The notes beneath the pieces are model-generated. The model ran no database searches and was not told where the DNA came from. It saw only the letters and a list, made by a program, of their open reading frames with translations. A stretch of DNA of 64,000 nucleotides from an uncultured Gemmatimonadales bacterium. Its GTDB lineage: Bacteria > Gemmatimonadota > Gemmatimonadetes > Longimicrobiales > RSA9. The stretch lies in contig CAWFKH010000005.1 in assembly GCA_963816355.1 (NCBI GenBank), positions 340,074 through 404,073 of the forward strand, given 5' to 3'. Positions 1,412 through 60,226 of this stretch are shown piece after piece (position 1 is the first letter of the stretch; each line of letters opens with the position of its first letter). The translations under genes were made by a program, and so were the position numbers.

Positions 1412-2968
1412 TCAGCGAGGGAGCCGCGGAAAGCGCTGCGGCGGCCGCCGCCAACGGGTCGCCTGCTCGTAGGCGTACGCGACGCGGAAGATGGTGCCCT
1501 CCGCCCACGGCCGGGCGAGGATCTGCAGGCCGGCGGGCAGGTTCCCGTACGTGAAGCCCATGGGCACGGTGGCGGCGGGCATGCCGGTGGCCGGCGCGAT
1601 GAGTTGGCTGTTGTCGCCGCGGTACTCCTCGCGCGCGCGGTCGAGGTGCGCGGGCGGGTACGTCCACGTCGGGTAGACGACGACGTCGACGCGCGCGCTG
1701 TCCATCGCCGCCACGACGTCGCGCAGAAAGCGCTGGCGCGGCGCGTTGTCGGCGAAGTCGGGGCATGGCGGGTCCCACTCCGACGGCGGCGTGTCGGCCG
1801 GCTGCTTCACGAGCGAGCGCAGGCTCTCCTCGACGTAGGAGGAGTACTGGCCGGACTCGAGGACCTCGGCGACGTCGTGGATCGGCGCGCCGGCACCGAG
1901 CGAGGCGAGGTAGCGGTGCATGTCGTAGCGGAACCGCGGGCAGAACATGTCGCGCGAGCGCAGGTCCTCCTCGAGGTCGGGCACCACGAACGGGTCGACG
2001 ATGCCGGCGCCGTGCGCGCGCAGGTCGGCGACGGCGCGGTCGAAGAGCGCGAGCACCGCGGTGTCGCTCCTTGCGGGATCCGCGAGCGCGCGCAGCACGC
2101 CGATGCGGACGCCGCGCAGGCCCGCGGTGTCGAGAAAGGCCGTGTAGTCGGCGGCGACGTGGCCGCGCCCGGCCGCGGTGTACGGGTCGGCCGGGTCGTA
2201 GCCAGCGATCACGTTGAGCACGCGCGCGGCGTCGGCGACGGTGCGCGCCATCGGCCCGGCGACGTCACGGTCGAAGGCGAGCGGCACGATGCCGTCGCGG
2301 CTGACGAGGCCGATCGTCGAGCGGATCCCGAACAGGTCGAGGTGGGACGACGGCCCGCGGATCGAGTTGCCGGTGTCGGTGCCGAGGCCGACGGCGGCGA
2401 AGCTGGCCGCGATGCCCGAGGCCGTGCCGCCGCTCGAGCCCGCCGGCACGCGGTCGAGCGCGTACGCGTTGGCGGTCGTGTCGAAGGAGGAGCTGACCGT
2501 CTGCCGTGGGCTGAACGCCCACTCCGCCATGTTCGTCTTGGCGACGACGACCGCGCCCGCGTCGCGGATTCGCCGCACCACGAACGCGTCGTCCGGCGGC
2601 CGGCTGTGCAGCAGCGCGACCGATCCGCCCGTGGTCGCCAGGTCGTGCGTGTCGTAGTTGTCCTTCACCAGCATCGGCACGCAGAAGAGCGCGCCGCCCG
2701 CGCGCCCGTCGGCGAGCGCGTGGTCGAGCGAGTCCGCGCGCGCGAGCGCGTTCGGATTCACCACGGTGATCGCGTTGAGCCCGGTCGAGTCGTCGTACGC
2801 CGCGATGCGGTCGAGGTACGCCTGCACGACCCCCCGGCACGTCACGTCACCGGAGCGGATCGCCGCCTCGATCCCCGGAATCGTAGCCTCCACCGGCTCG
2901 AACCCCCGCCCCCCGCCCCCGCCCGCGCGGCCGCCCGCGCACCCCCCCAGCCAGAGCCCGCCCACCAT
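1412..2968 (-). CDS. amidase (amidase-signature family), probable lipoprotein
   Basis: The C-terminal 518 aa of the giant ORF 1412..5353 carry the AS signature (GGSSGGTASGIAAS, K...S...S). The N-terminus MVGGLWLGGC is lipobox-like. The ATG at 2968 is in frame. Confidence 0.85.
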   Translation of the reverse strand: MVGGLWLGGCAGGRAGGGGGRGFEPVEATIPGIEAAIRSGDVTCRGVVQAYLDRIAAYDDSTGLNAITVVNPNALARADSLDHALADGRAGGALFCVPMLVKDNYDTHDLATTGGSVALLHSRPPDDAFVVRRIRDAGAVVVAKTNMAEWAFSPRQTVSSSFDTTANAYALDRVPAGSSGGTASGIAASFAAVGLGTDTGNSIRGPSSHLDLFGIRSTIGLVSRDGIVPLAFDRDVAGPMARTVADAARVLNVIAGYDPADPYTAAGRGHVAADYTAFLDTAGLRGVRIGVLRALADPARSDTAVLALFDRAVADLRAHGAGIVDPFVVPDLEEDLRSRDMFCPRFRYDMHRYLASLGAGAPIHDVAEVLESGQYSSYVEESLRSLVKQPADTPPSEWDPPCPDFADNAPRQRFLRDVVAAMDSARVDVVVYPTWTYPPAHLDRAREEYRGDNSQLIAPATGMPAATVPMGFTYGNLPAGLQILARPWAEGTIFRVAYAYEQATRWRRPPQRFPRLPR

Positions 2969-2989
2969 GCCGAGGATTCCGAGCGCAAC

Positions 2990-3180
2990 GCCTCCCCTCG
3001 CCGAAGGCGAGCTTCCCCGCCGCAGGCGGCCCCCCCGCGCGGAGCGCGGCCCCCGCCGCAGGCGGTTTCCCCGCGCGCAGCGCGGCCCCCCGCCGCAGGC
3101 GGGCTTCCCTCGCGAAGCGAGCTTCCCCGCGCCCAGCGCGGCTTCCCTCGCAACGCGAGCTTCCCTCGCGCAGCGAGCGC
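2990..3180. repeat. tandem hairpin-repeat array (GCGAGCTTCCC / CTCGCGCAGCGAG units), B-orientation member of the GGCGAG-GGAAG-CTCGCC family
   Basis: Direct reading shows repeated palindromic units between the prolyl oligopeptidase stop and the amidase start. The same family occurs at 29.9-31.2 kb and 43.7-44.3 kb. Confidence 0.7.
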
Positions 3181-6908: not shown

Positions 6909-7180
6909 CCGGGGCGCGCATCCAGGCGCGGTCAAGCGCCGTGGCGTGGCCCGGCGGCGTGGCGGCGCGGCCCGGCGGCAGGTGCGCCGCGGCGCGGCCC
7001 GCTCGGCCATGAGAATTCCTTCAGCGCGGCCTCGCGCTCCTCGGATCTGGCCCGGGCGCCGCGGAGCGGCCCGCTTGGCCATGGGAATGCCCCGGCGCGC
7101 CGTGCATCATGGCGTGTCGACGGAGCGGCTGGAGCGCCGTCGCGAGGATGACCGCGAGAGCGTTCGGGAGGTCCGATTCG

Positions 7181-8113
7181 ATGCGCGCCGATGTGGAGCA
7201 GCGGGTTCGCGACGTCGCCGCAAGCCAGCACGGGGTGGTCACCCGCAACCAGCTCGTTCGGGCGGGCCTTTCCTCGGCCGCCATCGGTCGCAAGGTGATG
7301 CGCGGGCAGCTGCAGACGCGCCATCGGGGCGTGTATCAGCTGGGGCCGCTCGCGCTTCCCGGCGCCTCCCACATGGCTGCCGTGCTCGCCGGCGGGCCCG
7401 CCGCAACCCTGAGCCACCTTTCCGCAGCGAGCCTCTCCGGGTTGCGCCCGCGGCCGGACGTCCCGGGGCCGATCCACGTCAGCGTTCCGGGAGCGGGCCG
7501 GAGTCGCAGGCCCGGCATACGCTTCCACCGCGTCGCCCTCGCCGACGACGAGCGGACGATCGTCGACGGCATTCCCATCACGGCACCGGGACGCACGCTC
7601 GTGGACATCGCCGGCATGCTGGGCCGGCGCGAGATCGAGCACGCCGTCGCCTGCGCCGAACGGGAACGCCTCATCGATCACGAGCAGCTCGCCGCGCTTC
7701 CGGAGCGCTACCGCAGCCGTCCCGGCATCGGCCTGTTGCGAGAAGTGACGCAGCGGCTCGCGGAGCCGGCGTTCACGCGCTCCGAGGCGGAGAACCGATG
7801 TCTCGAGATGCTGGACGCCGCCCGGATCCCCCGGCCGCACTCCAACGTGCCGATCGGACCCTACGAGCTGGACCACTTCTGGCCCGTGGAGGGGATCGCC
7901 ATCGAGATCGACGGCCGCGCATACCATTCCGCTCGCGGCCGCTTCGAGGGCGATCGCCGCAAGGATGCATGGCTCCGCGCCCGCGGCATCGAGGTGATCC
8001 GCCTCACCTGGAGGCAGATCACGCGCGAAGCGATGCCCACCGCCGTCCAGATCGGTCAGATCCTCGCTCTCGCCCGGGCCCGCAAAGCCGCGACCCCGCG
8101 GGAGGCGTCGTAG
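7181..8113 (+). CDS. DUF559 endonuclease-like domain protein with AbiEi-type N-terminal domain
   Basis: ORF 7109..8113 has an N-terminal wHTH-like AbiEi_4 region (HGVVTRNQLVRAGLS...). Its C-terminus carries the DUF559/Vsr-like fold motifs (FTRSEAENRCLEML...IEIDGRAYH...DRRKDAWLRARGIEVIRL). The internal ATG is at 7181. Confidence 0.75.
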   Translation: MRADVEQRVRDVAASQHGVVTRNQLVRAGLSSAAIGRKVMRGQLQTRHRGVYQLGPLALPGASHMAAVLAGGPAATLSHLSAASLSGLRPRPDVPGPIHVSVPGAGRSRRPGIRFHRVALADDERTIVDGIPITAPGRTLVDIAGMLGRREIEHAVACAERERLIDHEQLAALPERYRSRPGIGLLREVTQRLAEPAFTRSEAENRCLEMLDAARIPRPHSNVPIGPYELDHFWPVEGIAIEIDGRAYHSARGRFEGDRRKDAWLRARGIEVIRLTWRQITREAMPTAVQIGQILALARARKAATPREAS

Positions 8114-8265
8114 GCGACGTCGTCGCAACGCATTCGCAGGCGACGTCGTCGCAACGCATCGCAGGCGACGTCGTCGCAACGCATCGCAGGCGACGTCGTC
8201 GCAACGCATCGCAGGCGACGTCGTCGCAACGCATCGCAGGCGACGTCGTCGCAACGCCGCATCGG
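8112..8265. repeat. 25-bp tandem repeat x6 (AGGCGACGTCGTCGCAACGCATCGC) with palindromic core CGACGTCG
   Basis: Six near-identical units read directly, starting at the stop codon of the DUF559 gene. Confidence 0.8.
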
Positions 8266-8404
8266 CGCCTGGGGCGCAGGGGCCCAGGGCGTTCAACGCA
8301 AGCGTACCGGCCGGACGAACCCAACCGTTCTCGCGACTCACGGCGAACGGCTGGGATTCGGCCGCGTCGAGGACGGCCCGTGCGAGAAGAATCTCGTAAT
8401 CGGC

Positions 8405-8432
8405 GCCGGTCGGATGCTCGCCATCCGGATTT
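8405..8432 (+). terminator. candidate intrinsic terminator (CGGATG-ctcgc-CATCCG stem-loop followed by GATTTTT)
   Basis: A GC-rich 6-7 bp stem plus a T5 run, which is rare in a 70% GC sequence. It lies inside a low-GC island with no ORF. Confidence 0.35.
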
Positions 8433-8677
8433 TTCTCGGAATCCGGGAAGAATCTCGTAACGAACACCCTGGTCCTGGATCGCAAACGAGATATTGCTCG
8501 ATTTCCGAGACAAAACCGGATAGCGATCCCCGAGACGCCATCCATTACGAGAAATTGCTCACTTCTCGGAGCACGAACCGGCCGAGACGTGCTCGACCTC
8601 GACCGCGAGTCCGGGAAACCCTCGCCCACGGAGGACCACCGCAATGTGTAGCCCGGGCAGAGTGGACGCGCATGCTC

Positions 8678-8808
8678 GGGCGGACGCAAGCGGGGCGGAC
8701 GCATGCTCGGGCGGACGCAAGCCGGGCGGACGCAAGCGGGGCGGACGCAAGCCGGGCGGACGCAAGCGGGGCGGACGCAAGCCGGGCGGACGCAAGCGGG
8801 GCGGACGC
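8678..8808. repeat. 15-bp tandem repeat x~8.5 (GGGCGGACGCAAGCS)
   Basis: Read directly. It is flanked by two copies of GCATGCTCGGGCGGACGCAAG. Confidence 0.75.
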
Positions 8809-8849
8809 CCCGATTGGAGCGCCCGCCCCGCAATCGCTCACCTGCGTTC

Positions 8850-9015
8850 GGCGACGATCGCGCGAGACGGCTCAGCGCACCGCCTGCCCCTCAGCGCATC
8901 GCCCGCAACCTGGGCGACGATCGCGCGAGACGGCTCAGCGCACCGCCTGCCCCTCAGCGCATCGCCCGCAACCTCGGCGACGACGGCGCGAGACGGCTCA
9001 GCGCACCGTCCGCAC
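8850..9015. repeat. 63-bp tandem repeat x~2.6
   Basis: Unit GGCGACGATCGCGCGAGACGGCTCAGCGCACCGCCTGCCCCTCAGCGCATCGCCCGCAACCT is repeated twice, followed by a degenerate partial copy. That partial copy also encodes the last codons of the minus-strand lipoprotein gene. Confidence 0.7.
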
Positions 9016-10250: not shown

Positions 10251-13200
10251 TCAGAATCTCCAGTCGCGGAAGACGAAGAGGCCGAACACGCCGGTGGTGA
10301 TCGGCGAGCTGAAGCGCACGAGCGACGGCGCGCTGGGCAGGAAGCGCGGCTCGAAGGATACGCGGCCGCCGTAGCCGCCCTGCGTCTTGTACTCGAGCCG
10401 GAGGCCGGGCTGGACGGCGGTGGGACGCACCTGCGCGGAGAGGAAGAGGTCGCTGGTGAGGTACTTCCCCACGTCGAACTCGGTGCCGCGCAGCACGGTG
10501 CCGAAGCCGCCGAGCGAGAGCTCGGGCGGCAGGTCGGCGGGGGTGATGCTGAAGACGTCGAGGCCGAGTCCGCGGGTGGCGTTGCGCTGCGCCTGTCCGA
10601 CGAGCGCGCCGAACGCGACCGTCGTGAGCTGCTGCGTCGCGAGCGCGGCCACGGAGCCGACGAGCTGTCCGCTGCTCGTGCCCTGTCCGGAGAGGGCCGA
10701 GCCCTGCTGCTGCAGCAGGGAGGAGGAGGAGCGGCCGAACGCGAGGTAGCTGATCAGGTCGGACTGCGAGATCGGCGGCTGCGCGTCGCTATCGAGGGAG
10801 ACGCGGAGCTGGTCGAGCGTGCCGCCCACGAGGATGCGGATCTCCAGCGCCTCGCGGCCGGGGAGCTGCACCTGGTGGGCCGCGGTGATCTGCACCTGTG
10901 GATCGACCGGCGTGGTGCCGATGAAGCGGACCGACCCGTTCTTGAGCAGGAATCGACGGCCCATGAAGGTGTAGTCGCCGCGCTCCGTCGCCACCACACC
11001 CCTCAGCTGCAGGCCGCGGCCGCTCGGCGCGTAGTGCACCGCGACGTGGCCGAACTCCTCCGGCGTGTACACCTCGACGTTGGCCGCGCTGGTGCGCACC
11101 CACGTGTCGCGCGCGACGGTCATGTCCACGGCGACATCCAGGTTGCGCAGGAGCGGTGACGCGTAGCGTGGCAGCAGCACGCGCTCCGCCGCGACCGTCG
11201 TGTCCGCGAGCGCGATCAGCGCGGGGTCGTCGTCCGAAATGAGCCGCTGCTGCGTCTGGTCGAGGTAGAGCGTGCCGCCCTCGATGCGGGCGTCGCCGGT
11301 GACGCGCACGGAATCGGGCGGGCCGCGGATCGCGAGGTCGAGATCGGCGCGCAGGCGGCCGTGCTCGTTGTCCAGGACGACGGCCTCGTCCGTCGTGATC
11401 GCGAGGGCGAGGCGCGGATTCGCGAGGGAGGCGAGCCCGATGCCGCCGGTCACACGAACGAGCCCGCCGCCGCTGCGGCCGACGAGCGAGTCGACCGCGA
11501 TCGAATCGCCGGCGAACTCGAGGCGTCCCACGGCGGCGTCCAGGGCGACGCCCAGCGGCTCGATCCGGAAGCCGCCGTGGCCCAGCGTGACCTCGCCGTC
11601 GAGCTTCGGCGCCTGGACCGTTCCGCCGACCTGCACGTCGCCTGCGACGACACCGCGCAGGGCGCTGATGGCGGGGAAGACGTCCGGCAGCCGCTCGAGC
11701 GGCAGGCTGTCGGTGACGATCTCGGCGTCCACGGGCCGGTCGGGCAGCAGCGGGCCGGTGCGGTCCGTGAAGGCGAGGTCGATCGGCATCGTACCGCGGA
11801 GGCGGGCGATGCGCTGCTCGCCCGCGAGGACGGGCGGCGGCGCGGCGCTGTCGGCGAGGTCGAGCGGCGGCCGGCTCCACGCGCCGGCGGTGTCCGCGCG
11901 CGCGGCGAGGCGGGCGGCGACGGTGTCGGCGAGCGGCGTGAAGAGGCCGGCGTCGGCGCGCAGTGTCCGGTCGGCGTAGGCGAAGCGGGCCGACGAGGTC
12001 GGGGAGCGGACGCTCGCCGTAGGCGGCGCCGAGGAGCGTCGCGCTGCCGTCGAAGAGCGGGGCCTGGCGGGTTCCGCGGAGACGCGTGTGGAGCGAGAGC
12101 ATGCCGCGGGCGGGGATCGAGTCCTGGAGCAGGGCGAGGACGTGGCCGACCTGCAGGCGGTCGATCGCGACATCGAGCCGCGACGGGCCCTGCACGGGCA
12201 GGCGGCCGTCGACGTAGATGCGGCCGCCCGCGTCGTCGCGCAGCTCGATCGAGTCGACGGCCACGCCGCGGCCGCGCCACGTGACGGCGCCCGGGTGGGC
12301 GGAGTGCCAGCGGGTGGAGTCGAAGCGGAGCGCGACGTCGTGGAGGCGCACGTCCCGGCGGTCGAGTTGCAGCGTGTAGTCCGCGGCGAGCTCGTAGTCG
12401 CGCAGCGTGTCCTGCCAGATGGCGACCTTGGCAGTGCCCGTGCCGCCGCCCGGGCTGGAGGGGAAGCCGCTCTGCCCCACCTGTGCGTGCACGCTGTCGA
12501 GGGCGAAGCCGAGTGCGAATACGGAGTCGAGCTGCGCGTCCAGCTCGACGCGCTGCGCCGACGTGCTCACGCCGAGCCACGCGTAGTCGAGGTCTCCCGC
12601 CCGCACCGCGTTGCCGGCGATCACGACGCGGTCGAGGCGGGCGCGGCCGTGCAGGTCGAAGCCGTCGAGGCTGCCGGCGAGCGTGCCCTCGGCGCGCAAG
12701 GCGCCGGCGAGGGAGTCCTTCGGCAGGGGTGTCACGGTATCGACGGGCGGCATCGGCGGCGGCGCCTGGTTCGTCGCGGCGCGCGCGACGGCGGTGGCGT
12801 TGGCGATGCGGACCGAGTCGGCGCGGGCGCTCTCGATGCGGGAGCGCGCGATCGCCGGCCGCGGGCTCACCACGCCGGTGTCGCCGGGCAGCCACGCCGC
12901 AAAATCGCGCAGCGAGTCGACGTTCACCACGTAGTGCAGCGTGCCGGTGCGGCCGCCCACGAGGCCGAAGCGGCCGTCGAGCGAGGTGGTGCCGGAGGCG
13001 AGCGCGACGCGCGCGGTGTCGACGACGGCGAGGCCGTCCGCGACCGAGCCGCGCAGCAGGACCGTGTCGACCGCGACACCGCGGGTGGAGAAGCGGGCGA
13101 GGTCCGCGTCGACGTGCGCGTTCATCGTCGCCGGGTCGAAGCCCCGCCCGCGGGCGACGATGCGGCCGGTGAGCGACGCCGCCGGCGCGCGTTCGGACAG

Positions 13201-14952
13201 CGCGTCGGTGCGCACGCCGCGCAGCTGCGTCGCGACGTCGTAACGCACCGGCCCACCGCCGAGGCCGACGCTGCCCTGCGCCTCGATGGCGCCGCCCTGC
13301 GCGAGCGCCAGGTCGGTGGTGAAGCTCAGGTCGGAGAGCGCGCCGCGGGCTCGCAGCGTTCCGGTCGCGTCGCCGCGCAGCCGCGCGCCGGGCGCGAAGC
13401 GGTTGACGACGGCGAGGTCGAGCGGTTGCGCGCGCAGCGCGAGGTCGATGCGCGTCGGATGCAGCGCGACGGTGCCGTGGCCGGTGAGGTGGGAGCGCAG
13501 CGAACCGTTCCGGTGCACGAGGTCGGCGTCCGCGGCGAGGCGCGTCCTAGTCGAGCCGGTGAGCGTGGCCGTGCCGGTGAGCGTGCCGCCGAGCGGCAGC
13601 CCCGGCCACGCGACGCGGGCGAGGTCGACCTGCAGCGGCTCGAGCCGCACGCGCAGCGCCCGCGCCTCCACGCCGCCGCCGAAGCCGACGGTGCCGTTCG
13701 CGGCGACGTGGCTGCGGCCGGAGCGCGCGCCGTCGAAGACAATGTCGCCGTTCACGGCCAGCGCGCGCGGCGTGCCGGCGAGGCGGACGTCGCCCGCGAG
13801 CGCGCCGCGGCGCGGGAAATCGAGCGCGGGCACGAGCCGCTCGAGCAGGGCGGTGCCGACGTGGCCGAAGCTCAGGTGCGTGTCGTGGAAGCGGAGCGTG
13901 TCGCCGAAGACGACGCCGAGGTCGCCCTCGACGCGGGCATCGCCGATGCGCACGCGGGAGTCGCGCGCCACGACCTCCATCAGGCGCTGGCCGCGGCGGA
14001 AGGTGCCGCGGAAGACGGCGGTGCCGCTGTCCGGCAGCGCCGGGTAGGCCCAGCGCAGGTCGGCGAGCGCGGCGGGGTCGGCGGCGGCGCCGATCCTCAC
14101 GCGTCCCTCGGCCGTGTTGATGGCGCCGTCGAGCGCGATCGCGGACGCGGGCAGGCGGACGCGCACATCGTGGATGCGCAGCGTGTCGCCGACCACGGTG
14201 ATGGCGCCGCGCAGGTCCTGGACGTGAGCCACGGGCGGCAGCCACGGGGCGGCGATCATGCGCAGCCGCGCGATCTCGGCGCGGATGCCGGCGCTGTCCG
14301 GGTCGACGAGGCGAAGCAGCGGCAGGCGGGCGTACACATCGCGGAAGAGCATCACCTGCTGCAGGCCGCCGGGCACGCGCTCGACGCGCAGGCGCGTGCT
14401 GTCCGAGAGCGCGGCCGCGACGGCCGCGCGGCGCGTCGCCTCGCCGAGCGAGTCGGGGGGAGACCACGGGCGCCGCAGCGTGAAGCGCGCGTCGTCGAGG
14501 ACGAGGTCGTGGATGTGGATGTTGGCGGCGAAGCCGGTCTTCGGCCCCGTCGCGCTCGCATTGCCGGGGAAGATGCGCGCGTAGTTCCACTCGCCGCCGG
14601 GCCGCTTGTCGAGCACGACGCGCGCGTTCACCAGCCGCAGCCCCTGCAGGTCGAGGCGGCGCGACAGCAGCGTCGCGAGGCGGTACCGTCCGGCCACCGT
14701 GTCAGCGCTGAGGAACGGCCGGCCGGCGCTGTCGGCAATCGCGAGATCCGTGAGCGTGATGCCGTTCAGCAGGTTGCCGCTCACGCCGCCAATGTGGACG
14801 CGGCCGTGGACGCTTTTCTCGAGCTGCTGAAGGGCGAGGCGGCGGATGCGCTCGTGGCCGAAGCGCGTCTGCGTCAGCACGAAGATCGCGACAACGACCA
14901 GCGCGAGCAGTCCGCCGATCACGTACAGCCCGACGCGGGCGGCGCGCCGCAT
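10251..14952 (-). CDS. tamB: translocation and assembly module subunit TamB (AsmA/DUF490 family), apparently frameshifted near 11990
   Basis: The N-terminal 980 aa of ORF 10789..14952 (MRRAARVGLYVIGGLLALVVVAIFVL...) are TamB-like. The C-terminal DUF490 region continues in another frame as ORF 10251..12173 (...GDVQVGGTVQAPKLDGEVTL...FRDWRF). It lies immediately downstream of tamA. Confidence 0.75.
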
Positions 14953-28159: not shown

Positions 28160-29524
28160 CTACAGCTTCACGACGTTCTCCGCCTCCGGTCCCTTGCGCG
28201 CGTCGACCCGCGTGAACTCGACGCGGTCGCCCTCGTCCAGCGTGCGGAAGCCCTCGCCGACGATCGCCGTGTAGTGGACGAAGCAATCGTCACCGCCATC
28301 CTCGGGGGTGACGAAGCCGAACCCCTTCGAGTCGCTGAACCACTTGACCGTTCCGCCGATCCGCGGCCCGGCGGCGGCGGCGGTCGCGGCGTCCGACGCG
28401 GTCTGCCGCACGCGCGGCCCTTCCCCCGCGTCGGATCCCTTCGACGACGCCGGCGCCGATTCCGCTTCGCCGCCCGAGCGCCCGCTATCCGAACGCCCGC
28501 CGCCCGAACGCCCGCCGCCCGAACGCCCGCCGCCCGAACGCCGGCCGCCACCGCGCCCGCCACCGCCCGTGCCATCGCCGCCACCGCGCCCGCCACGGGC
28601 GTCGCCATCGCCACCGTCGGTGCCGCCGCCGCGCCCGCCGCGGGCGCTGCCGGCGCCGGCCATCTCGGGCGACGACGTCGCCTCGATCCACTCCGGGCGC
28701 TGCGCGGCCCGCCGCGCCAGCTCGCCCACCGCGTCGCTCCGGGCGGAGGCGATGATCACCGTCTGGCGCGACGCCGGCAGCGCCGCCAGGACGGGATCGA
28801 GATCGCGGGCGGAGGAGCCGAGGCGATCCGCGTCGTCGACGACGAGCACCTCGACCTCGGTCAGGTCGAGGTCGCCCGAGCCGAGGAGCTCGGCGGCGCG
28901 CGTCGGCGTGGTCACCAGCAGATCGAAGCCCGCGCGCAGGTCGCGGAGCTGACGCTCCGGCGGCACCCCCGCGTGCAGGAGGCCGATCCACAGGTGCGTC
29001 TCGCCGGCGAGGGCCTCCGCTTCAGCGCCCACGGCGGCGACGGCGGCGTCGCCCGGGCAGAGGATCAGCGTGCGCAGCCCCTCCCTCCCGACCTGCCGCT
29101 CCACGACCGGCAGCATGTAGGCGCCGGTCTTGCCGGCGCCGGCGGGCGCGATGACCACGACGTCGTGGCCAGCGCCGATCTGCGGCGTGGCCGCCGACTG
29201 CACCGGCGTCGGCCGCGACCACCCGCGCGCCTCGAGCGCCTCACGCAGCGGCGCTGACGACGTCAGCTCCTCGAAGCTGCGGCGCTGCGGTACGCGCGGC
29301 GCTTCCGACTCCGGCGGCGTCGCGGTCCGCAGCTTCGGCGCCGCCGCCCCGGCCGCGCCGCGCCGCCGCCGGAGGAGCGCATACAGCACGGCCGCGCCCA
29401 CGAAGGCGACGACGACGAGCGTCCAGATCAGCGGCTGCCAGCCGAAACTATCCAAGGGCTCCCTTCCGCTCCCTTCCCAACGGACCGCATGCTCGTAACG
29501 ATCCGCACCTCCGCGAGGCATCAT
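28160..29524 (-). CDS. membrane-anchored DEAD-box helicase domain-1-like / RGG-rich / cold-shock domain protein
   Basis: It has an N-terminal TM helix ([23 protein letters not shown]), then the Q motif, Walker A (AGAGKTGAY), TPTR, VVDDAD and SAR, with no helicase domain 2. A (GGRGG)n linker follows, then a C-terminal CspA-like domain ([31 protein letters not shown]). A TTG at about 29455, preceded by AAGGGAG, is an alternative start. Confidence 0.7.
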
Positions 29525-29866: not shown

Positions 29867-29929
29867 GCGCTATCCTCCCGGTCAACGGACACCAGATTGT
29901 GATGGGATGCAATGCAAGGGACGCGCCGG

Positions 29930-30375
29930 GGGCTCGCCTTCGGCGAGGGAAGCTCGCCTGGCGGCGAAGGAAGCTCGCCTGCGGCGAGGGAAGCCCGCCT
30001 GCGGCGGGGGAAGCCGCCTCCGGCGGGGGCCGGCTGCGCCGGGGAGGCTCGCCTGACGGCGAGGGAAGCTCGCCTCCGGCGGGGGCCGGCTGCGCCGGGG
30101 AGGCTCGCCTGACGGCGAGGGAAGCTCGCCTGCGGCGAGGGCCGGCTGCGCCGGGGAAGCCCGCCTGACGGCGGGGGAAGCCGCCTGCGGCGGGGGCCGG
30201 CTGCGCCGGGGAAGCCCGCCTGGCGGCGGGGGAAGCCCGCCTCCGGCGGGGGCCGGCTGCGCCGGGGAGGCTCGCCTGACGGCGAGGGAAGCCGCCTCCG
30301 GCGGGGGCCGGCTGCGCCGGGGAGGCTCGCCTGACGGCGAGGGAAGCTCGCCTCCGGCGGGGGGCCGCCTGCGGG
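29930..30375. repeat. tandem hairpin-repeat array, A orientation (units GGCGAGGGAAGCTCGCC and the 32-nt nested variant, organised in ~57-bp higher-order repeats x6-7)
   Basis: Read directly. Each unit is a 6-bp stem with a GGAAG loop, and the longer unit nests a CCGGC..GCCGG hairpin. Confidence 0.8.
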
Positions 30376-30384
30376 TCTTTCAGG

Positions 30385-30816
30385 TCAGGGGCGATCCGAG
30401 GAGGCCCGACGTTGCATGGCGCGGCAGTGGTGGACGAGCACTATGCCGAGACGGCGCGCGGCGGCCCGGCACGGGGCGAGCGACTCGGCGGGCTCGATGC
30501 CTTTGATCGCGAGCAGCGCCAATGCGTTCTCCGCTTCGGAGACGGAGCGGCGGGCGATTCGGTAGATGCGTGCCTTTTCCGCCGGCCGATACTCACCGAT
30601 CGCTTCGCCCACGTTCAGGACCGCCGAATCGACCGCCCGATCGAGCTGGTCGCTCAACGCGGGCCACGATCGCCTCACCCGATTGACGATCGGCAACGCC
30701 GCCGCCGCGAATCCCTCGGCCAGCCGCCGCACGGCAAGCCCCTCATACTCAGCGCCCAAACCCTCCTCCTCTCCGTCCGTCATCACAACATCCACTCCCT
30801 GCCCGGCCAGATCCAT
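30385..30816 (-). CDS. four-helix-bundle protein (TIGR02436 / 23S rRNA intervening-sequence protein / Avd-like family)
   Basis: The C-terminal 143 aa of ORF 30385..32376 align to the family consensus (WPALSDQLDRAVDSAVLNVGEAIGEY...KARIYRIARRSVSEAENALALLAIKGI versus FPKEE.YGLTSQIRRSAISIPSNIAEGYGR...EFVHFLYIALGSATELDTQLIIACELGYI). An alternative ATG lies at 30783. Confidence 0.75.
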   Translation of the reverse strand: MDLAGQGVDVVMTDGEEEGLGAEYEGLAVRRLAEGFAAAALPIVNRVRRSWPALSDQLDRAVDSAVLNVGEAIGEYRPAEKARIYRIARRSVSEAENALALLAIKGIEPAESLAPCRAAARRLGIVLVHHCRAMQRRASSDRP

Positions 30817-30837
30817 GTCCCCGTGAGCCCTAACCAA

Positions 30838-31195
30838 GGCGGTTTGCCCCGGCGCAGCCGGCCCCTCGCCGCCAGGCGAGCTTCCCCGGCGCAGCCGGCC
30901 CCTCGCCGAAGGCGAGCTCCCCCGGCGCAGCCGGCCCCTCGCCGAAGGCGAGCTCCCCCTCGCGAAGCGAGCTTCCCTCGCCGAAGGCGAGCTCCCCCGG
31001 CGCAGCCGGCCCCTCGCCGAAGGCGAGCTCCCCCTCGCGAAGCGAGCTTCCCTCGCCGAAGGCGAGCTCCCCCGGCGCAGCCGGCCCCTCGCCGAAGGCG
31101 AGCTTCCCTCGCGAAGCGAGCTTCCCTCGCCGCCAGGCGAGCTTCCCCGGCGCAGCCGGCTTCCCTCGCCGCAGGCGAGCGCTCCGCGCTTGCGC
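30838..31195. repeat. tandem hairpin-repeat array, B orientation (reverse complement of the 29930-30375 array)
   Basis: Units AGGCGAGCTTCCCTCGCC and CCGGCGCAGCCGGCCCCTCGCC are the reverse complements of the A-array units. Confidence 0.8.
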
Positions 31196-41893: not shown

Positions 41894-43255
41894 TCAGCCG
41901 CCGACGTCGACGCTCTCCCCCTCTTCCGCGACGCTGCACGACCAGTGCAGCGTCTCCTCAATGCGGCGCCGCAGCGCGTCGGCCGCCTCCGGCTCGCCGT
42001 GGGTCAGGTAGGTGTGACGCGGCGGCGCCTCGAAGTGGCCGAGCCAGGCGATCAGCTCGTCGGCGTCGGCGTGGGCCGACAGGCCGTGCAATGCCACGAC
42101 CTCCGCCCGCACCGGCACGTGCTGGCCGTGGATCTTGATCGTCTGCGCGCCCGCGAGCATCGCCGCGCCGCGCGTCCCTGCCGCCTGGTAGCCCGCGAAG
42201 AGGACCGTGTTGCGGTGGTCCGGCGCGAACACCTTCAGGTGATGGATGACGCGGCCGCCGGTCGCCATGCCGCTCGCCGAAACGACGATCATCGGGCCGC
42301 GTCGCCGATCCACGGCCTTCGACTCCTCCACCCCGTTCACGATCTGGACGTCCGCCTCCACGTCGCGCCACTGCTCCGCCGTGAGCCGGTGCTCGTCCGG
42401 ATAGCGCGCGTACAGGTGCGTGACCTTCGTCGCCATCGGACTGTCCAGGAAGATCGGCAGGCGCGGGATCGCGTTCTCCGCCGCCAGCCGGTGCAGGTGG
42501 TAGAGCAGGACCTGCGTGCGCCCCACGGCGAAGGCGGGGATGACGACGACGCCGCCTCGCGACGCCGTCCTCCGCACGACCTCGCCCAGCAACGCCTGCG
42601 CGTCCTCGCCGCCGTGCGTGCGGTCGCCGTACGTCGACTCGAGCACGAGGTTCGCCGCGTGGCGCGGCTGCGCCGGCGGCAGCAGCACCGCGCCGTCCGG
42701 CCGCCCGAGGTCGCCGCTGAAAAGGACCTCTCCGCCGCTCGCCCGCAGCCGCACCAGCGAGGAGCCGAGGATGTGGCCCGCGCGCTCGAGGTGCGCCGTG
42801 ACGCCCGCCGCCACCTCGAAGTCGACACCGCGCTCGACCGCCCGGAACGACTGCAGGGACTGCCTCGCGTCCGCCTCCGTGTAGAGCGGCAGGGCTGGGT
42901 GGTGCCGGCTGAAGCCATGGCGGTTCGCGAACTCCGCCTCCTCTTCCTGCAGGTGGCCGCTGTCCGGCAGCAGGATCGCGCACAGGTCCCGCGTAGCCGC
43001 CGTGCAGTAGATCGGGCCGCTGAAGCCCTCCCGCACCAGCAGCGGCAGGTACCCCGTATGGTCAATGTGCGCGTGCGTAAGCACCACCGCGTCGATCGAC
43101 GACGGCTCGACCGGAAACGGCCGGCGGTTGCGCAGCCGCAACTGCTTCAGGCCCTGAAAGAGGCCGCAGTCGACCAGCACCCGACGCTCGCCCGCCTCGA
43201 CCAGGTATTTCGACCCGGTCACCGTGCCCGCCGCCCCGAGGAACTTCAGTCGCAT
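41894..43255 (-). CDS. MBL-fold metallo-hydrolase with beta-CASP / RNA-metabolising C-terminal domain
   Basis: It carries [13 protein letters not shown] (HxHxDH) plus beta-CASP motifs. The ATG at 43255 is preceded by GGAGGTGG. Confidence 0.85.
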
Positions 43256-43312
43256 CGCGCCACCTCCCCGCGCCTCCGTGGATGCCGTCGTCGCCGCACG
43301 CTCACCCGTCCC

Positions 43313-43395
43313 CGCGCCCTGGCCCGTCGGCGCGCCCTCGCTCGTCGCCGCGCCCTGGCCCGTCGGCGCGCCCTCGCTCGTCGGCGCGCCCTCGT
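43313..43395. repeat. 33-bp direct repeat x2 (CCCTGGCCCGTCGGCGCGCCCTCGCTCGTCGCCGCG)
   Basis: Read directly, just upstream of the MBL hydrolase start. Confidence 0.5.
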
Positions 43396-43405
43396 TCATG
43401 GGGCG

Positions 43406-43636
43406 CTACCACTCCTCGATGTCCGGCTCCCAGTCGTCCCAGAAGCGCTCCTCCTCCTCCCGGATCGACTCGCGATCGAGCGGCTCCTCCCCCGCTTCGA
43501 CCGGATCGCCCCGCTCGATGCTGCGGACGACGTCGTCCGTCACCCTCGGCGCACCGCCCCGCCCCGCCCGCGCCCGCGAGCGGATCAGCCATCCCCCGAT
43601 CACCGCCAGTGCCGCCGCACCGATCCAGAAGAACAT
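43406..43636 (-). CDS. hypothetical small protein (76 aa: one TM helix plus an acidic Trp-containing tail)
   Basis: It is the C-terminal segment of ORF 43406..44314 (MFFWIGAAALAVIGGWLIRS...EEERFWDDWEPDIEEW). The upstream part of that ORF is antisense to the repeat array and is treated as spurious. Confidence 0.35.
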   Translation of the reverse strand: MFFWIGAAALAVIGGWLIRSRARAGRGGAPRVTDDVVRSIERGDPVEAGEEPLDRESIREEEERFWDDWEPDIEEW

Positions 43637-43669
43637 GCCACGGAATCTGCCGATCCTCGGCCGGGACGC

Positions 43670-44280
43670 AAGGCGCTCGCCTGGCGGCGAGGGAAGCTCG
43701 CCTGGCGGCGAGGGAAGCTCGCCTGGCGGCGAGGGAAGCTCGCCTGCGGCGAGGGGAGCTCGCCTGCGGCGAGGGCCTCGCCTGGCGGCGTGGGAAGCTC
43801 GCCTGCGGCGAGGGCCCGGGCTCGCGCCGGGGGAAGCTCGCCTGCGGCGAGGGTCGCGCGTCGGCCGGCCTCCCTCGCGCAGCGAGCTTCCCCCGCGCAG
43901 CGGGCCCCGGCGCAGCCGGCCTCCCTCGCGCAGCGAGCTTCCCCCGCGCAGCGGGCCCCGGCGAAGCCGGCCTCCCTCGCGCAGCGAGCTTCCCCCGCGC
44001 AGCGGGCCCCGGCGCAGCCGGCCTCCCTCGCGCAGCGAGCTTCCCCCGCGCAGCGGGCCCCCGGCGAAGCCGGCCTCCCTCGCGCAGCGAGCTTCCCCCG
44101 CGCAGCGGGCCCCGGCGCAGCCGGCCTCCCTCGCGCAGCGAGCTTCCCTCGCGCAGCGGGCTTCCCCTGCAGAGCAGGTCCCCGGCGAAGCCGGCTTCCC
44201 TCGCGCAGCGAGCTTCCCCGGCGGAGCCGGCTTCCCTCGCGCAGCAAGCTTCCCTCGCGCAAGCGAGCGCCACGCGCAGC
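43670..44280. repeat. composite palindromic hairpin-repeat array: A-orientation units (43670-43860) abutting B-orientation ~57-bp units x5-6 (43870-44280)
   Basis: The left half is GGCGAGGGAAGCTCGCCTG units. The right half is CCTCCCTCGCGCAGCGAGCTTCCCCCGCGCAGCGGGCCCCGGCGCAGCCGG units, which is the same family as 29930-31195 but with no gene between the halves. Confidence 0.8.
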
Positions 44281-44315
44281 GAGCTCTCAACGTTCTCCCC
44301 AACCAGGGCGTCATT

Positions 44316-44885
44316 ATGGCGATGACGGAATCGGACGGTCGACTCGTCGAGCGGGCCCGTACGGGCGACGCGGCGGCCTTCGAGGAGTTGGTGAGACGCC
44401 ACCTGCGCGGAGCCTACGCCGTCGCGCTTGCCGCCCTGGGCGAGCCGGCCGATGCGGAGGACGCGGTCCAGGATGCGTTCATCACGGCCCTCGAGCGGCT
44501 GGAGGAGTGTCGCGAGCCGGACCGCTTCGGAGCGTGGGTCCTGCGGATCGCGCGCAACCGGGCGCACAGCCTGCGCCGCCGCCGTCACGTGCGGCAGGCG
44601 CAGCCGCTCGACGAGCTGCGCGCCGCAGCGACGGAGGACGACCCGCTCGCGGAAGCGTCGCGCGCGGAGACGCGGGAGCGACTGATCTCGGCGCTCGACG
44701 TGCTGAGCGATACACAGCGGGAGGTCTTTCTGATGCACGACCTGGAGGGCTGGCGCCACCGCGAGATCGCGGACCGAATGGGGCTGCCCGAGGGCACCGT
44801 GCGCTCGCACCTGTTTCACGCCCGCCGCGCGCTGCGGCGGACGCTCGGACCCGGCATGGCGGAGGAGCTCGATGACCGACACTGA
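44316..44885 (+). CDS. RNA polymerase sigma-70 family ECF sigma factor
   Basis: A 189-aa product with region 2 (AFEELVRRHLRGAYAVALAALG...DAVQDAFI) and region 4 (SDTQREVFLMHDLEGWRHREIADRMGLPEGTVRSHLFHAR). Confidence 0.88.
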   Translation: MAMTESDGRLVERARTGDAAAFEELVRRHLRGAYAVALAALGEPADAEDAVQDAFITALERLEECREPDRFGAWVLRIARNRAHSLRRRRHVRQAQPLDELRAAATEDDPLAEASRAETRERLISALDVLSDTQREVFLMHDLEGWRHREIADRMGLPEGTVRSHLFHARRALRRTLGPGMAEELDDRH

Positions 44886-55667: not shown

Positions 55668-55851
55668 GGGGGTGGGGAGGCGCGAGGACTTGGGGCGGCG
55701 GGGACGGGACGGTACAGGGCGCGGCGTACCCCGGACCGGTCTGGGGTCTGCGGAGGGGGTCTGGGGAGGGTCTGGGGTACGAGGGTCTGCGGGGGGTGTG
55801 GGGTACGGGGGTCTGCGGGGGTCTGGGGTACGGGGGTCTGGGGGGGCTGCC
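55668..55851. repeat. G-rich tandem repeat block (GGGTCTGGGG / TACGGGGGTCTGCGGGGG units), left copy of an inverted-repeat pair
   Basis: Read directly. Its reverse complement recurs at 60055-60226, including the identical 27-mer CGGTCTGGGGTCTGCGGAGGGGGTCTG. Confidence 0.75.
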
Positions 55852-60054: not shown

Positions 60055-60226
60055 TCCCCCGCCGTTCCTCCGTCCCCCAGACCCCCGTCCCCCAGACCCC
60101 CCCAGACCCCCCCCGTACCCCAGACCCCCCGCAGACCCCCTCCGCAGACCCCAGACCGCTCCCCTCCCACCCGTCCCTGTCCCCACCCCTGCCTCTCCAC
60201 CACCAACCCCCCTAAATTCCCCCCCC
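60055..60226. repeat. C-rich (minus-strand G-rich) tandem repeat block, right copy of the inverted-repeat pair
   Basis: It is the reverse complement of the 55668-55851 block. It lies in the divergent arfB/dinB intergenic region. Confidence 0.75.

Follow-up and report, generated by a model that had tools for sequence, protein, structure and literature searches.

Opposed arrays of mini-hairpins between two divergent operons of an uncultured Gemmatimonadales bacterium, a candidate gene-less member of a palindromic element family

The block at positions 43676-44285 of the window, by which we mean the whole stretch of 64,000 nucleotides analysed here, is composed of about 33 G+C-rich mini-hairpins of 13-16 nt, which are strung into two opposed arrays of about 9 and about 24 units. 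The block is non-coding, and we give an even chance to the explanation that it belongs, as an arms-only form lacking a gene, to a family of palindromic elements private to this lineage. It is called arms-only because only 20 nt separate its two halves and the PF05635 ORF, which a related pair of arrays encloses elsewhere in the window, is absent. The two opposed hairpin arrays were already described in an earlier note on this DNA and were confirmed by Tandem Repeats Finder, by a hairpin parse and by inverted 15-mer matches, with GCGAGGGAAGCTCGC and GCGAGCTTCCCTCGC repeated as perfect inverted matches.

The halves are opposite in orientation and unequal in length (178 versus 422 nt), with units arranged head-to-tail within each half and a single orientation switch in the whole block. 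The left array (43676-43853, orientation A) consists of about 9 units with a 20-21-nt period, and was reported by Tandem Repeats Finder at 43675-43853 with a period of 21 and 8.9 copies (GCTCGCCTGCGGCGAGGGAA). Seven of these units, with GGAAG spacers, parse as perfect hairpins of the form CTCGCC-TG(G)C-GGCGAG; the other two are degenerate, and it is the minus strand that has the G-N-A loops. For the right half, in orientation B, Tandem Repeats Finder gave a period of 51 (7.7 copies) with a sub-period of 18 (24 copies) at 43864-44261/44285, and the parse yielded 21 hairpins of the type CTCGC/CCCGC/CCGGC-GNA-..., spaced by CTTCC, CC or CCTCC. The young part of this array (43869-44124) comprises 15 hairpins with G-N-A loops on the plus strand, which form five near-identical copies of a higher-order unit. 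The unit had been estimated at about 57 bp and is actually 51-52 nt long, a triple hairpin that reads CCTCC-CTCGC-GCA-GCGAG-CTTCC-CCCGC-GCA-GCGGG-CC-CCGGC-G(C/A)A-GCCGG; 106-nt copies within the right array are 93-98% identical. A degenerate outer part of about 160 nt follows (44125-44285), in which about 9 units mix the stems CTCGC, CCTGC and CCGGC, and which ends in ...CTCGC-GCAA-GCGAG-CGCCACGCGCAGCGAGCTC. A head-to-head junction is present near position 43865, where the earlier note had placed it, with its extent corrected to 43854-43873 (GGTCGCGCGTCGGCCGGCCTCC); it contains no ORF. The GC skew of the block is +0.20, followed by -0.19. The exact copy numbers of the array units are the only part of the assembly that we do not trust.

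The non-coding status of the block follows from unit lengths of 21/20/39 and 51/52, which break any frame, and from the lack of a codon-position signal. The G+C content is flat over the three codon positions in all six frames (0.71-0.86); the neighbouring longer genes have a GC3 of 0.87-0.97.

The hairpin motif GCGAGCTTCCC is found 25 times in the window versus 0.18 times expected and is confined to 2995-3178, 29923-31180 and 43676-44285. With all arrays brought into a common orientation, there are 78 loops, of which 60 are G-N-A and a further 12 G(C/T)CA; the middle base varies (C 39, A 15, G 6) between an invariant G and A. One strand shows a G-N-A triloop or a G-YC-A tetraloop that is closed by C:G and sits on a stem of 5-6 bp, and at least six stem variants are still paired (CTCGC(C), CCCGC(C), CCGGC, CCGCC, CCGCGC and CCTGC). 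The spacers read CTTCC, CCTCC or CC on the G-N-A strand. A CRISPR array was rejected, the spacers being 2-6 nt long and themselves repeated. Single units are predicted to fold as DNA hairpins with -4 to -7 kcal/mol, and the 51-nt unit into three DNA mini-hairpins with -14.5 kcal/mol. A long imperfect duplex between the A and B halves is predicted for either strand (-437 and -478 kcal/mol, with z-scores of -4.2 and -7.5), the minus strand having the best predicted fold (-478 kcal/mol, z -7.5). In the minimum-free-energy fold, pairing occurs between the A half and a portion of the B half, with z-scores that are modest for such a G+C-rich sequence and arms that are 77% alike and unequal.

Motif, loop and array comparisons bear out the earlier view that the two halves represent one repeat family in opposite orientation, the same as that of the arrays around a four-helix-bundle gene at 29.9-31.2 kb. 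This gene (30385-30816, minus strand) was rightly recognized from the sequence and belongs, by profile match, to the PF05635/TIGR02436 family, named "23S rRNA intervening-sequence protein"; its GC3 is 0.80 versus 0.90-0.97 in the three flanking genes. It is enclosed by an A-orientation array (29923-30373) of about 23 hairpins with higher-order periods of 56, 111 and 167, and a B-orientation array (30847-31180) of 18 hairpins with periods of 36 and 75. The block at 43676-44285 has the same order and polarity, as had been proposed, an agreement that at a single locus has a one-in-two chance of being a coincidence. In the comparison with related genomes that the earlier note had suggested, the array-gene-array block at 29.9-31.2 kb is a 1.3-kb insertion relative to the genomes L041 and L042, which have kept the flanking genes with 147-165 bp between them and have no PF05635 gene. 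The insertion target is a spacer of about 25 bp, bounded by flank motifs that both genomes conserve, which places the element between conserved promoter-side motifs of a divergent gene pair. A third related genome (L048) carries the same design of A-type hairpins, PF05635 gene and B-type hairpins, as an independent copy in another metagenome assembly, and its arrays have 16-18-mers in common with those of the window.

The PF05635 gene is the only one among 48 window genes with complementary flanks (score 52 versus a maximum of 15). Inverted arms of short tandem units also surround PF05635 genes at the loci L045, L046 and L049, in Nostoc (L051) and in Azospirillum (L052), the last being a true 23S intervening sequence (IVS). 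Of eight PF05635 loci from several phyla that we examined, seven combine a G-rich 5' arm with a C-rich 3' arm, both made of short tandem units, and in all seven loci with arms the GC skew is positive (+0.18 to +1.0) and then negative (-0.12 to -1.0). Most of the PF05635 loci with arms lie far away from rRNA genes. A word-index search for homologues of the PF05635 protein returned only the protein itself, and its relatives were found by an exhaustive HMMER search. The PDB sequence search with this protein gave no meaningful match, and tblastn of PF05635 proteins against plasmids gave no match at strict thresholds and two weak, informative matches at E values up to 0.5. To our knowledge, PF05635 genes have no known function outside diversity-generating retroelements.

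The block had been interpreted as an empty counterpart of the full element, supporting insertion or excision of cargo at the array centre. The family and the polarity of the layout agree with the first part of this interpretation, and the sequence comparisons make it plausible; however, the halves are poorly matched and the junction carries no footprint. No other pair among the five arrays is as dissimilar as the two halves, whose alignment of 165 columns has 77% identity, 25 gap positions and no common 16-mer, and the left half is closer to the 30-kb arrays (84-86%). The block therefore does not amount to a plain copy of the full element that lacks only the cargo, and an arm pair recently derived from one element should be better matched than these halves. 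Insertion or excision of cargo between the arrays is a hypothesis at present. The test that the earlier note had proposed fails: the junction, compared with the gene-proximal ends of the 30-kb arrays, scored 20 against a null of 15.7 +/- 2.2, a score that 29 of 500 shuffles reach and that is not significant, and neither a trace of a lost ORF nor a target-site duplication at the borders was found at 43676-44285.

A solitary array of the same family, with nine hairpins in B orientation, is located at 2995-3178, where it starts 3 nt past the stop codon of an S9 peptidase gene, showing that arrays need neither a partner nor cargo. The L048 element also adjoins an S9 peptidase gene, but the two peptidases are unrelated, and the idea of orthologous sites was rejected. 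We also dropped the idea that the direction of the adjacent gene sets the array orientation, which four arrays fit and the array at 2995-3178 does not. The window has several other, unrelated intergenic tandem arrays, and the GC skew across it is uninformative on replication direction. In about 77 kb of sampled DNA from related genomes, an array detector flagged only the pair of arrays around a PF05635 gene. The exact two-hairpin pattern, which is too specific to detect the related L048 arrays, gave single chance matches in coding sequences when searched in 185,579 species genomes, JGI metagenomes and viral contigs. The BLAST search of the block against plasmids matched only an unrelated iteron-like Streptomyces repeat. 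No Rfam family was found in the window at gathering scores, and a search with E values up to 1 gave only a chance Gut-1 match (E 0.47). No RAYT or other transposase was found among about 45 window genes scanned.

The block lies between two divergent operons. On its left, a small ORF of 76 aa (43406-43636, minus strand, with the coordinates corrected from the earlier note) is the first gene of a small ORF/beta-CASP metallo-beta-lactamase operon. It has one predicted membrane helix and an acidic tail, matches no Pfam family and is 45% identical to a 78-aa ORF preceding the beta-CASP gene in the relative L001. On the right, an ECF sigma factor gene (44322-44885, plus strand), assigned by Pfam and 66% identical to its L001 orthologue, is followed by two small genes and by genes for an outer-membrane efflux protein, a HlyD-type adaptor and a MacB-type permease. 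The start of the sigma factor gene had been placed at 44316, and the orthologue alignment (MTESD... versus MTATD...) makes the ATG at 44322 most likely, with which the described distance of 36 nt from the array to the operon start holds.

A candidate ECF-type promoter CTCAACGTT (44287-44312, plus strand) has a -35 "AAC" at 44289-44291 and CGTC at 44309-44312, 9 nt before the ATG at 44322; AAC/CGT is the pattern of ECF promoters. The alignment has the block CTCAACGTTyTCC...GCGTC-N9-ATGAC in common between the window and L001. The candidate promoter of the small-ORF operon (43643-43671, minus strand), read from the sequence, comprises a -35-like TTGCGT (43671-43666), a 17-nt spacer and a -10-like AGATTC (43648-43643), with 6 nt to the ATG. 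L001 has a TTGCCT 30 nt before the small-ORF ATG, versus 29 nt in the window, when the two regions, which MAFFT left unaligned, are anchored manually at the ATG. The promoter positions are inferred from conservation in this one relative, and suggest that both divergent operons probably produce leaderless mRNAs.

The array fills the gap between the candidate -35 elements, at 3 nt from that of the ECF promoter and 4 nt from the TTGCGT of the minus-strand operon. Being upstream of both candidate core promoters, it would not be contained in transcripts from them. Transcription across the whole array could start from a sigma-70-like match on the minus strand (44342-44313; 1 versus 0.0 expected in shuffles). 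The region 43300-44500 was free of terminator-like sites, which argues against an intrinsic terminator cluster. The closest relative found, L001, which is the sole relative compared for this locus (67% protein identity), has no array at the orthologous ECF sigma and small ORF/beta-CASP genes, and its two operons are separated by two extra genes. As L001 has the ECF promoter block conserved, and perhaps the layout of the minus-strand promoter, the array appears dispensable for running both operons.

Several known systems resemble the block in part. REP families have units of 20-40 bp with stems of 5-13 bp, frequent clusters, mostly head-to-head dimers, and subfamilies with alternative complementary stems (PMC3733652); in Thauera, gene clusters are flanked by arrays of GTAG-1 repeats, whose stems are 5 bp long (PMC3733652, PMC3116915). 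The units described here are likewise short extragenic G+C palindromes, all intergenic, with an 18-21-nt period, 5-6-bp stems and 3-4-nt loops; they have at least six compensated stem types, and at 43854-43873 the tags are outside, as in a head-to-head arrangement. They differ from REPs in the stem-adjacent tag, which is GAAG, GGAG or GGG in spacers reading GGAAG, GGAGG or GGG (CTTCC, CCTCC or CCC on the other strand), with no unit having the GTAG or CGTC conserved at one end of those repeats, in their period, which puts them at the extreme small end, and in having no known RAYT, the IS200/IS605-type transposase that accompanies GTAG families. Furthermore, as many as about 24 of them follow one another head-to-tail in an array with higher-order periodicity, whereas BIMEs alternate orientation regularly. 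Gemmatimonadota is not among the phyla listed for REPs in PMC3733652.

IVS elements, for example those of Coxiella, are ORF-in-stem-loop structures that are cut by RNase III (PMC4990558). The block resembles them in its inverted halves, which may form a long stem, with the sister element at 29.9-31.2 kb carrying its PF05635 ORF in the loop, and the arm polarity is that of the true IVS of Azospirillum (L052). ORF-less IVS stem-loops occur in rRNA genes. The block differs in lying between protein-coding operons, with no rRNA or other Rfam family in the window, in its arms, which are hairpin arrays of 180-450 nt versus about 30 bp, and in that this copy is probably not transcribed. As in MITEs, the block has inverted ends and no gene, and the same genome contains a longer relative that does bear one; however, that relative carries no transposase as its cargo, no target-site duplication is visible, the copies are 77-86% alike and the array ends vary in length. 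G-N-A loops closed by C:G are thought to form a sheared G:A pair, resulting in compact, nuclease-resistant DNA hairpins (PMC5449611). The Streptomyces telomere palindromes, a series of short G+C hairpins with G-N-A loops, resemble the block in this loop chemistry only, as they form the termini of linear replicons and function in terminal-protein priming, whereas the block is internal, tandem and in both orientations.

The block could also consist of two independent REP-like satellite arrays that merely abut and never had any cargo, with REP-type units spread by a single-strand transposase or template switching, seeded on each side and grown by slippage. We consider this unlikely, but it deserves serious weight, since the halves are the least similar pair and differ in unit types and periods, a solitary array exists at 2995-3178, and the several unrelated intergenic tandem arrays in the window suggest a genome that readily tolerates or generates arrays. 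REP clusters, tandem REP arrays and head-to-head dimers are also documented (PMC3733652, PMC3116915). The arguments on the other side are the G-rich-then-C-rich polarity common to all seven PF05635 elements with arms, the occurrence of such arrays beyond the window, in related genomes, only around a PF05635 gene, and the absence of a GTAG/CGTC tag from the units and of a RAYT or other transposase from the scanned window genes. Errors of assembly or base calling in a long-read metagenome, or a low-complexity coding segment, could be suspected from the long ORFs that cross the block in several frames and from the source, which is apparently a metagenome assembly with a 404-kb contig. Such an origin is extremely improbable in view of three loci with different, internally consistent higher-order units and compensated stems, the same design on a contig of another metagenome assembly (L048), and the frame-breaking unit lengths with no codon-position signal in any frame.

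Two further explanations assign a function to the block. As a selected regulatory or insulating DNA element, it would tune or uncouple the ECF sigma and beta-CASP operons, its arrays extruding under the negative supercoiling that the two divergent promoters create or binding a nucleoid protein, gyrase or the four-helix-bundle protein. The block exactly fills the space between both -35 regions and touches neither, the 30-kb element is likewise positioned between promoter-side motifs of a divergent gene pair, and all variants preserve the loop G and A as well as the stem pairing; a role as topological insulators has been put forward for BIME-type REP clusters in work cited in PMC3733652. Selection of this kind is nevertheless improbable, given that the closest relative has no array at the orthologous genes, that copy number and unit types vary as widely as expected of unconstrained satellites, and that stems of 5-6 bp are generally short for cruciform extrusion. 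Alternatively, the block could be transcribed into a structured RNA, either a long imperfect dsRNA that RNase III would cut or the 5' leader, studded with hairpins, of the small-ORF/beta-CASP operon. The sigma-70-like match with 0.0 expected in shuffles and the strong predicted folds, best on the minus strand, point in this direction, as do the beta-CASP RNase-type enzyme encoded in the neighbouring operon and the precedent of IVS stems as RNase III substrates (PMC4990558). We regard a transcribed RNA as quite improbable, because L001 shows no conservation of the promoter-like hexamers, another candidate promoter is closer to the gene, in the stretch from the array to the ATG, and neither an Rfam family, even at E values up to 1, nor terminator-like sites were found.

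In the explanation that we put at even chance, the arms-only member of a palindromic family, REP-like mini-hairpin units would have been strung head-to-tail into two opposite arrays that meet head-to-head, and with the arrays abutting in this way, either strand reads as a G-rich arm followed by a C-rich arm. The related arm pair enclosing a PF05635 gene, elsewhere in this genome and in a related Gemmatimonadota genome, would be an IVS-like layout outside rRNA genes. The block may have arrived in, or grown within, a promoter-free spacer between two divergent, probably leaderless promoters, where nothing essential would have been disrupted, and may later have been enlarged through tandem duplication of multi-hairpin units. 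Signs of local duplication are the five 51-52-nt units at 93-98% identity and the own higher-order period of each array. Since the block is probably outside the transcripts of both operons, any effect would be at the DNA level. The two -35 elements would be held about 620 bp apart by a stiff, hairpin- or cruciform-prone block of 80% G+C, which could absorb negative supercoils generated by divergent transcription. The persistence of the block would be best explained by selfish or neutral DNA rather than by a dedicated regulator.

A wider reading, possible though doubtful, is that PF05635 genes form part of a class of palindromic cassettes that is widespread and extends beyond rRNA genes, each with a G-rich 5' arm and a C-rich 3' arm of lineage-specific tandem units, and that the block is an arms-only copy between promoters. 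In this cassette reading, the Gemmatimonadota arms would have grown into arrays of G-N-A mini-hairpins, and the block would be a cargo-loss derivative or a non-autonomous form.

Taken alone, the block adds another case of palindromic repeats that occupy the space between bacterial genes, here in a phylum from which such repeats are not known to have been described, and provides a natural test case for 0.6 kb of hairpin-prone DNA and the coupling of two divergent promoters. If the cassette reading is true, the arms, not the gene, would carry whatever lets the cassette spread or persist. If the pattern of polarised arms is general, intervening sequences would be one form of a broader stem-loop cassette, and arms-only copies, if the pattern holds, would offer a way to ask what the arms alone do in mobility, RNA processing or DNA topology.

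Repeats fill positions 43676-44285 of the 685-nt gap that separates the ECF sigma gene on the plus strand from the minus-strand small ORF at 43406-43636. Tandem Repeats Finder assigned a period of 21 nt in 8.9 copies to the left half (43675-43853) and a period of 51 nt in 7.7 copies, with a sub-period of 18 nt in 24 copies, to the right half (43864-44285). A perfect-hairpin parse resolved the left half into units of GGAAG plus CTCGCC-TG(G)C-GGCGAG, seven of them intact and two degenerate, and the right half into 21 hairpins with 5-bp stems and 3-nt loops, of the types CTCGC-GCA-GCGAG, CCCGC-GCA-GCGGG, and CCGGC-G(C/A)A-GCCGG, with CTTCC, CC, or CCTCC as spacers. The first 15 right-half hairpins make up a triple-hairpin unit of 51-52 nt that occurs five times at 43869-44124; 106-nt copies in this half share 93-98% identity with one another, and its final 160 nt consist of degenerate units. 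The two halves are oppositely oriented and meet at the junction 43854-43873. Repeat finding and the hairpin parse confirm the two opposed arrays described in an earlier note, whose right-half repeat stands, with a length of 51 nt rather than 57 nt, and whose divergent neighbor genes also stand, with the ECF start corrected to 44322 and the small ORF end to 43636.

The window contains 25 copies of the 11-mer GCGAGCTTCCC, where 0.18 would be expected, and they are confined to the block, the arrays at 29923-30373 and 30847-31180, and a solitary array at 2995-3178. The latter array has no A-orientation partner nearby, and a CCCCCG repeat run (2903-2952) is located just to its left, upstream of an amidase gene. 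The window has a G+C content of 73%. The unit lengths in the block (21, 20, and 39 nt; 51 and 52 nt) break the reading frame, and G+C by codon position is flat over the block in all six frames, where the neighboring longer genes have GC3 values of 0.87-0.97; the block is therefore non-coding.

With all five window arrays set to one orientation, 60 of the 78 hairpin loops are G-N-A and a further 12 are G(C/T)CA. The middle base of the G-N-A loops varies (C 39, A 15, G 6), with the initial G, the final A, and the closing C:G pair all kept, and at least six stem types occur among the array units, every one of them still paired. Compact, nuclease-resistant DNA mini-hairpins with C:G-closed G-N-A triloops are described for Streptomyces telomere overhangs (PMC5449611), which the window units resemble in the loop and in nothing beyond it. 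As DNA, a single unit is predicted to form one hairpin (-4 to -7 kcal/mol) and the 51-nt unit to form three. The whole block, when single-stranded, is predicted to favor a long imperfect left-right duplex (-437 kcal/mol, z -4.2, for the plus strand; -478 kcal/mol, z -7.5, for the minus strand).

In the operon to the left of the block (minus strand), a 76-aa ORF precedes the gene for a beta-CASP metallo-beta-lactamase-fold protein, and the operon to the right (plus strand) encodes the ECF sigma factor, two small proteins, an outer-membrane efflux protein, an HlyD-type adaptor, and a MacB-type permease. The comparison for this locus rests on one distant relative, the ENA metagenome contig L001, which is the closest found, with a beta-CASP protein identity of just 67%. 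Both operons are close together in L001, with two extra genes between them and intergenic regions of 107-111 bp, and no hairpin arrays are found at the orthologous genes. The window and L001 have CTCAACGTTyTCC...GCGTC-N9-ATGAC upstream of the ECF gene in common, and the alignment of the two ECF sigma factors begins at ATG 44322. We read AAC (44289-44291) and CGTC (44309-44312) as a candidate ECF-type promoter, which would yield a leaderless mRNA from ATG 44322. A weaker inference is that TTGCGT/AGATTC is a candidate minus-strand promoter of the small-ORF operon; the spacing in TTGCGT-N17-AGATTC-N6-ATG (43671-43634, minus strand) equals that of TTGCCT...ATG in L001, and MAFFT gave no alignment of the small-ORF upstream regions of the two. 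If both promoter readings are right, the array would span the exact space between the two candidate -35 elements, 4 nt and 3 nt away, and so would lie outside both transcripts. The sole sigma-70-like consensus match in the region, TCGACC-18-CATAAT (44313-44342, minus strand), overlaps the ECF gene start, faces the array, and could be the promoter of a transcript through it; it is not conserved in L001. An 18-nt repeat, CGTCGGCGCGCCCTCGCC, is present in 5.9 copies at 43289-43394, within an N-terminal extension of the beta-CASP ORF that is not covered by the homologues (452 aa, versus 501 aa in the window). The true beta-CASP start is probably near 43255, which would make this repeat part of the spacer from the small ORF to the beta-CASP gene.

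A dedicated regulatory role of the block is unlikely, because L001 has no array and shares the ECF promoter block and, possibly, the layout of the minus-strand promoter. It is possible that the block passively separates the promoters and absorbs transcription-driven supercoils; a similar action has been proposed for BIME clusters (cited in PMC3733652).

The gene (30385-30816, minus strand) between the arrays of the sister element at 29.9-31.2 kb matches both PF05635 (23S rRNA intervening-sequence protein) and TIGR02436 (four-helix-bundle protein) above the curated cut-offs. Its GC3 of 0.80, compared with 0.90-0.97 in three flanking genes, suggests a foreign origin. Two related genomes, with saccharopine-dehydrogenase homologues of 69% and 64% identity, keep the flanking genes; there, only 165 and 147 bp separate the DEAD-box/cold-shock gene and a 62-aa ORF from the divergently oriented saccharopine dehydrogenase gene, and both genomes lack the PF05635 gene and any array at that spacer. 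Conserved motifs on either side bracket the 1.3-kb element in the window, which, together with its absence from the relatives, identifies array, gene, and array as an inserted block lying between two promoter regions. For the minus-strand RNA of 29915-31190, the predicted fold is a single giant stem that carries the ORF in its loop (-997 kcal/mol), and in this predicted fold the element resembles an intervening sequence (IVS), for which an ORF in the loop of a stem is the described layout (PMC4990558). The neighboring DEAD-box helicase-cold-shock domain fusion (28160-29524), which is kept in the relatives L041 and L042, has an RGG-like linker from tandem repeats (28468-28612).

Compared with REP families (PMC3733652), the window units agree in stem length, compensated subfamilies, clusters, and head-to-head pairing, and thus in most descriptive criteria, but the defining GTAG/CGTC tag is missing, with GAAG/GGAG in its place. 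BIMEs alternate in orientation, whereas the window units do not. No transposase was found among the window genes scanned, and a MITE, a CRISPR array, and a terminator cluster were all ruled out as the identity of the block. Since it lies outside rRNA, it is not a strict IVS; it is a palindromic repeat cluster, or an ORF-less IVS-like stem-loop, in variant form.

An exhaustive profile search yielded 571 relatives of the window PF05635 protein, the best with 44% identity. Eight PF05635 loci, a small and unsystematic sample, were examined. L048, an 880-kb contig from the same metagenome assembly as L001, L041, and L042, carries a 121-aa PF05635 gene in an element at 2229-3060. On its 5' side, G+C mini-hairpins whose loops are TGC, TTC, or TGGC, separated by G-rich spacers, extend over about 200 nt, and on its 3' side, hairpins whose loops are GAA, GGA, GAAA, or GCCA, separated by C-rich spacers, extend over about 195 nt; 16-18-mers are common to these arrays and those of the window. 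The arms are 15-nt tandem units in L049 (2299-2986; 46 nt at 85% complementarity), a 14-nt unit in about 10 copies downstream, with its reverse complement at the contig start, in L045 (1-690), and a 55-nt inverted repeat at 89% in L046 (127-696). On a Nostoc plasmid (L051, 1127-1592), an annotated four-helix-bundle gene has GGGAAAA-type and CCCTTTT-type arms (31 nt at 94%). In Azospirillum lipoferum (L052, 2427-2895; arms of 36 nt at 86%), the PF05635 match is situated in a 23S rRNA gene, making this a true intervening sequence. It is the only such case; the PF05635 loci come from different phyla, and most of them are free-standing, with inverted arms built of short tandem units. No rRNA was found in L045-L049, and no arms were seen in L047, one short contig.

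All seven PF05635 loci with arms have G>C on the 5' side and C>G on the 3' side, independent of gene orientation, because such a palindrome reads alike on both strands. The block has the same polarity (GC skew +0.20, then -0.19). Complementarity between the 200-nt flanks, scored for 48 window genes, singles out the PF05635 gene (score 52); no other gene scores above 15 (median 9). Judged by titles and abstracts, none of the six papers found to name PF05635, TIGR02436, or the protein appears to describe inverted arms at free-standing copies. Several PF05635 proteins (P0249, P0254, P0258, and P0259; L047 481-515) end in low-complexity tails (PDTTDPDTTAPD, PTPNPQPKPKP, GSGSGSGS, GKGKGKG), which look like a 3' tandem-repeat arm translated by read-through; the ORF end and the downstream arm overlap in L049 and in L046.

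The window contains a second, unrelated inverted array pair, with G-run repeats GGGGTCTGGGGTACG on the left (55743-55846) and the reverse complement CCCCCAGACC on the right (60070-60204), flanking about 4.2 kb with five ordinary genes (TauE, LTXXQ, PAP2, amino-acid permease, and RF-1-domain protein). This pair, too, is G-rich in its first array and C-rich in its second (GC skew +0.67, then -0.69), and the G-runs are potentially quadruplex-forming. A region of about 0.9 kb without a convincing gene (8108-9008) contains three tandem arrays, with units of 25 nt (palindrome-containing; six copies at 98%), 15 nt (8.7 copies), and 63 nt (2.6 copies), which enclose a less G+C-rich island (8270-8640); an AbiEi/DUF559-like gene (7013-8113) adjoins. 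At 10251-14922, a TamB/DUF748-like coding signal passes from one long minus-strand ORF to a second one in a different frame near 11950; this switch may mark two adjacent genes, a frameshift, or a sequencing error.

The earlier note proposed that the block is an empty counterpart of the gene-bearing element. In favor of this, the two have the same repeat family and polarity, both sit between divergent promoter regions, and the gene-bearing form is real, recurrent, and inserted. Against it, no two of the five arrays resemble each other less than the block halves do (77%, with no 16-mer in common), the left half being closer to the 30-kb arrays (84-86%); the similarity of the junction to the cargo-proximal array ends, the comparison named in that note, is not significant; no duplication or footprint is visible at the block; and the array at 2995-3178 is solitary and of a single orientation. 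This junction test has low power either way, because the arrays evolve fast by duplication of multi-unit blocks. Our best reading, to which we give a roughly even chance of being correct, is that the block is an arms-only member of the gene-bearing element family, built from REP-like units and expanded at its present site. The main rival, which we consider less likely, is that two independent REP-like arrays merely abut. The polarized-arm architecture of PF05635 genes in general is a more interesting lead than the block itself.
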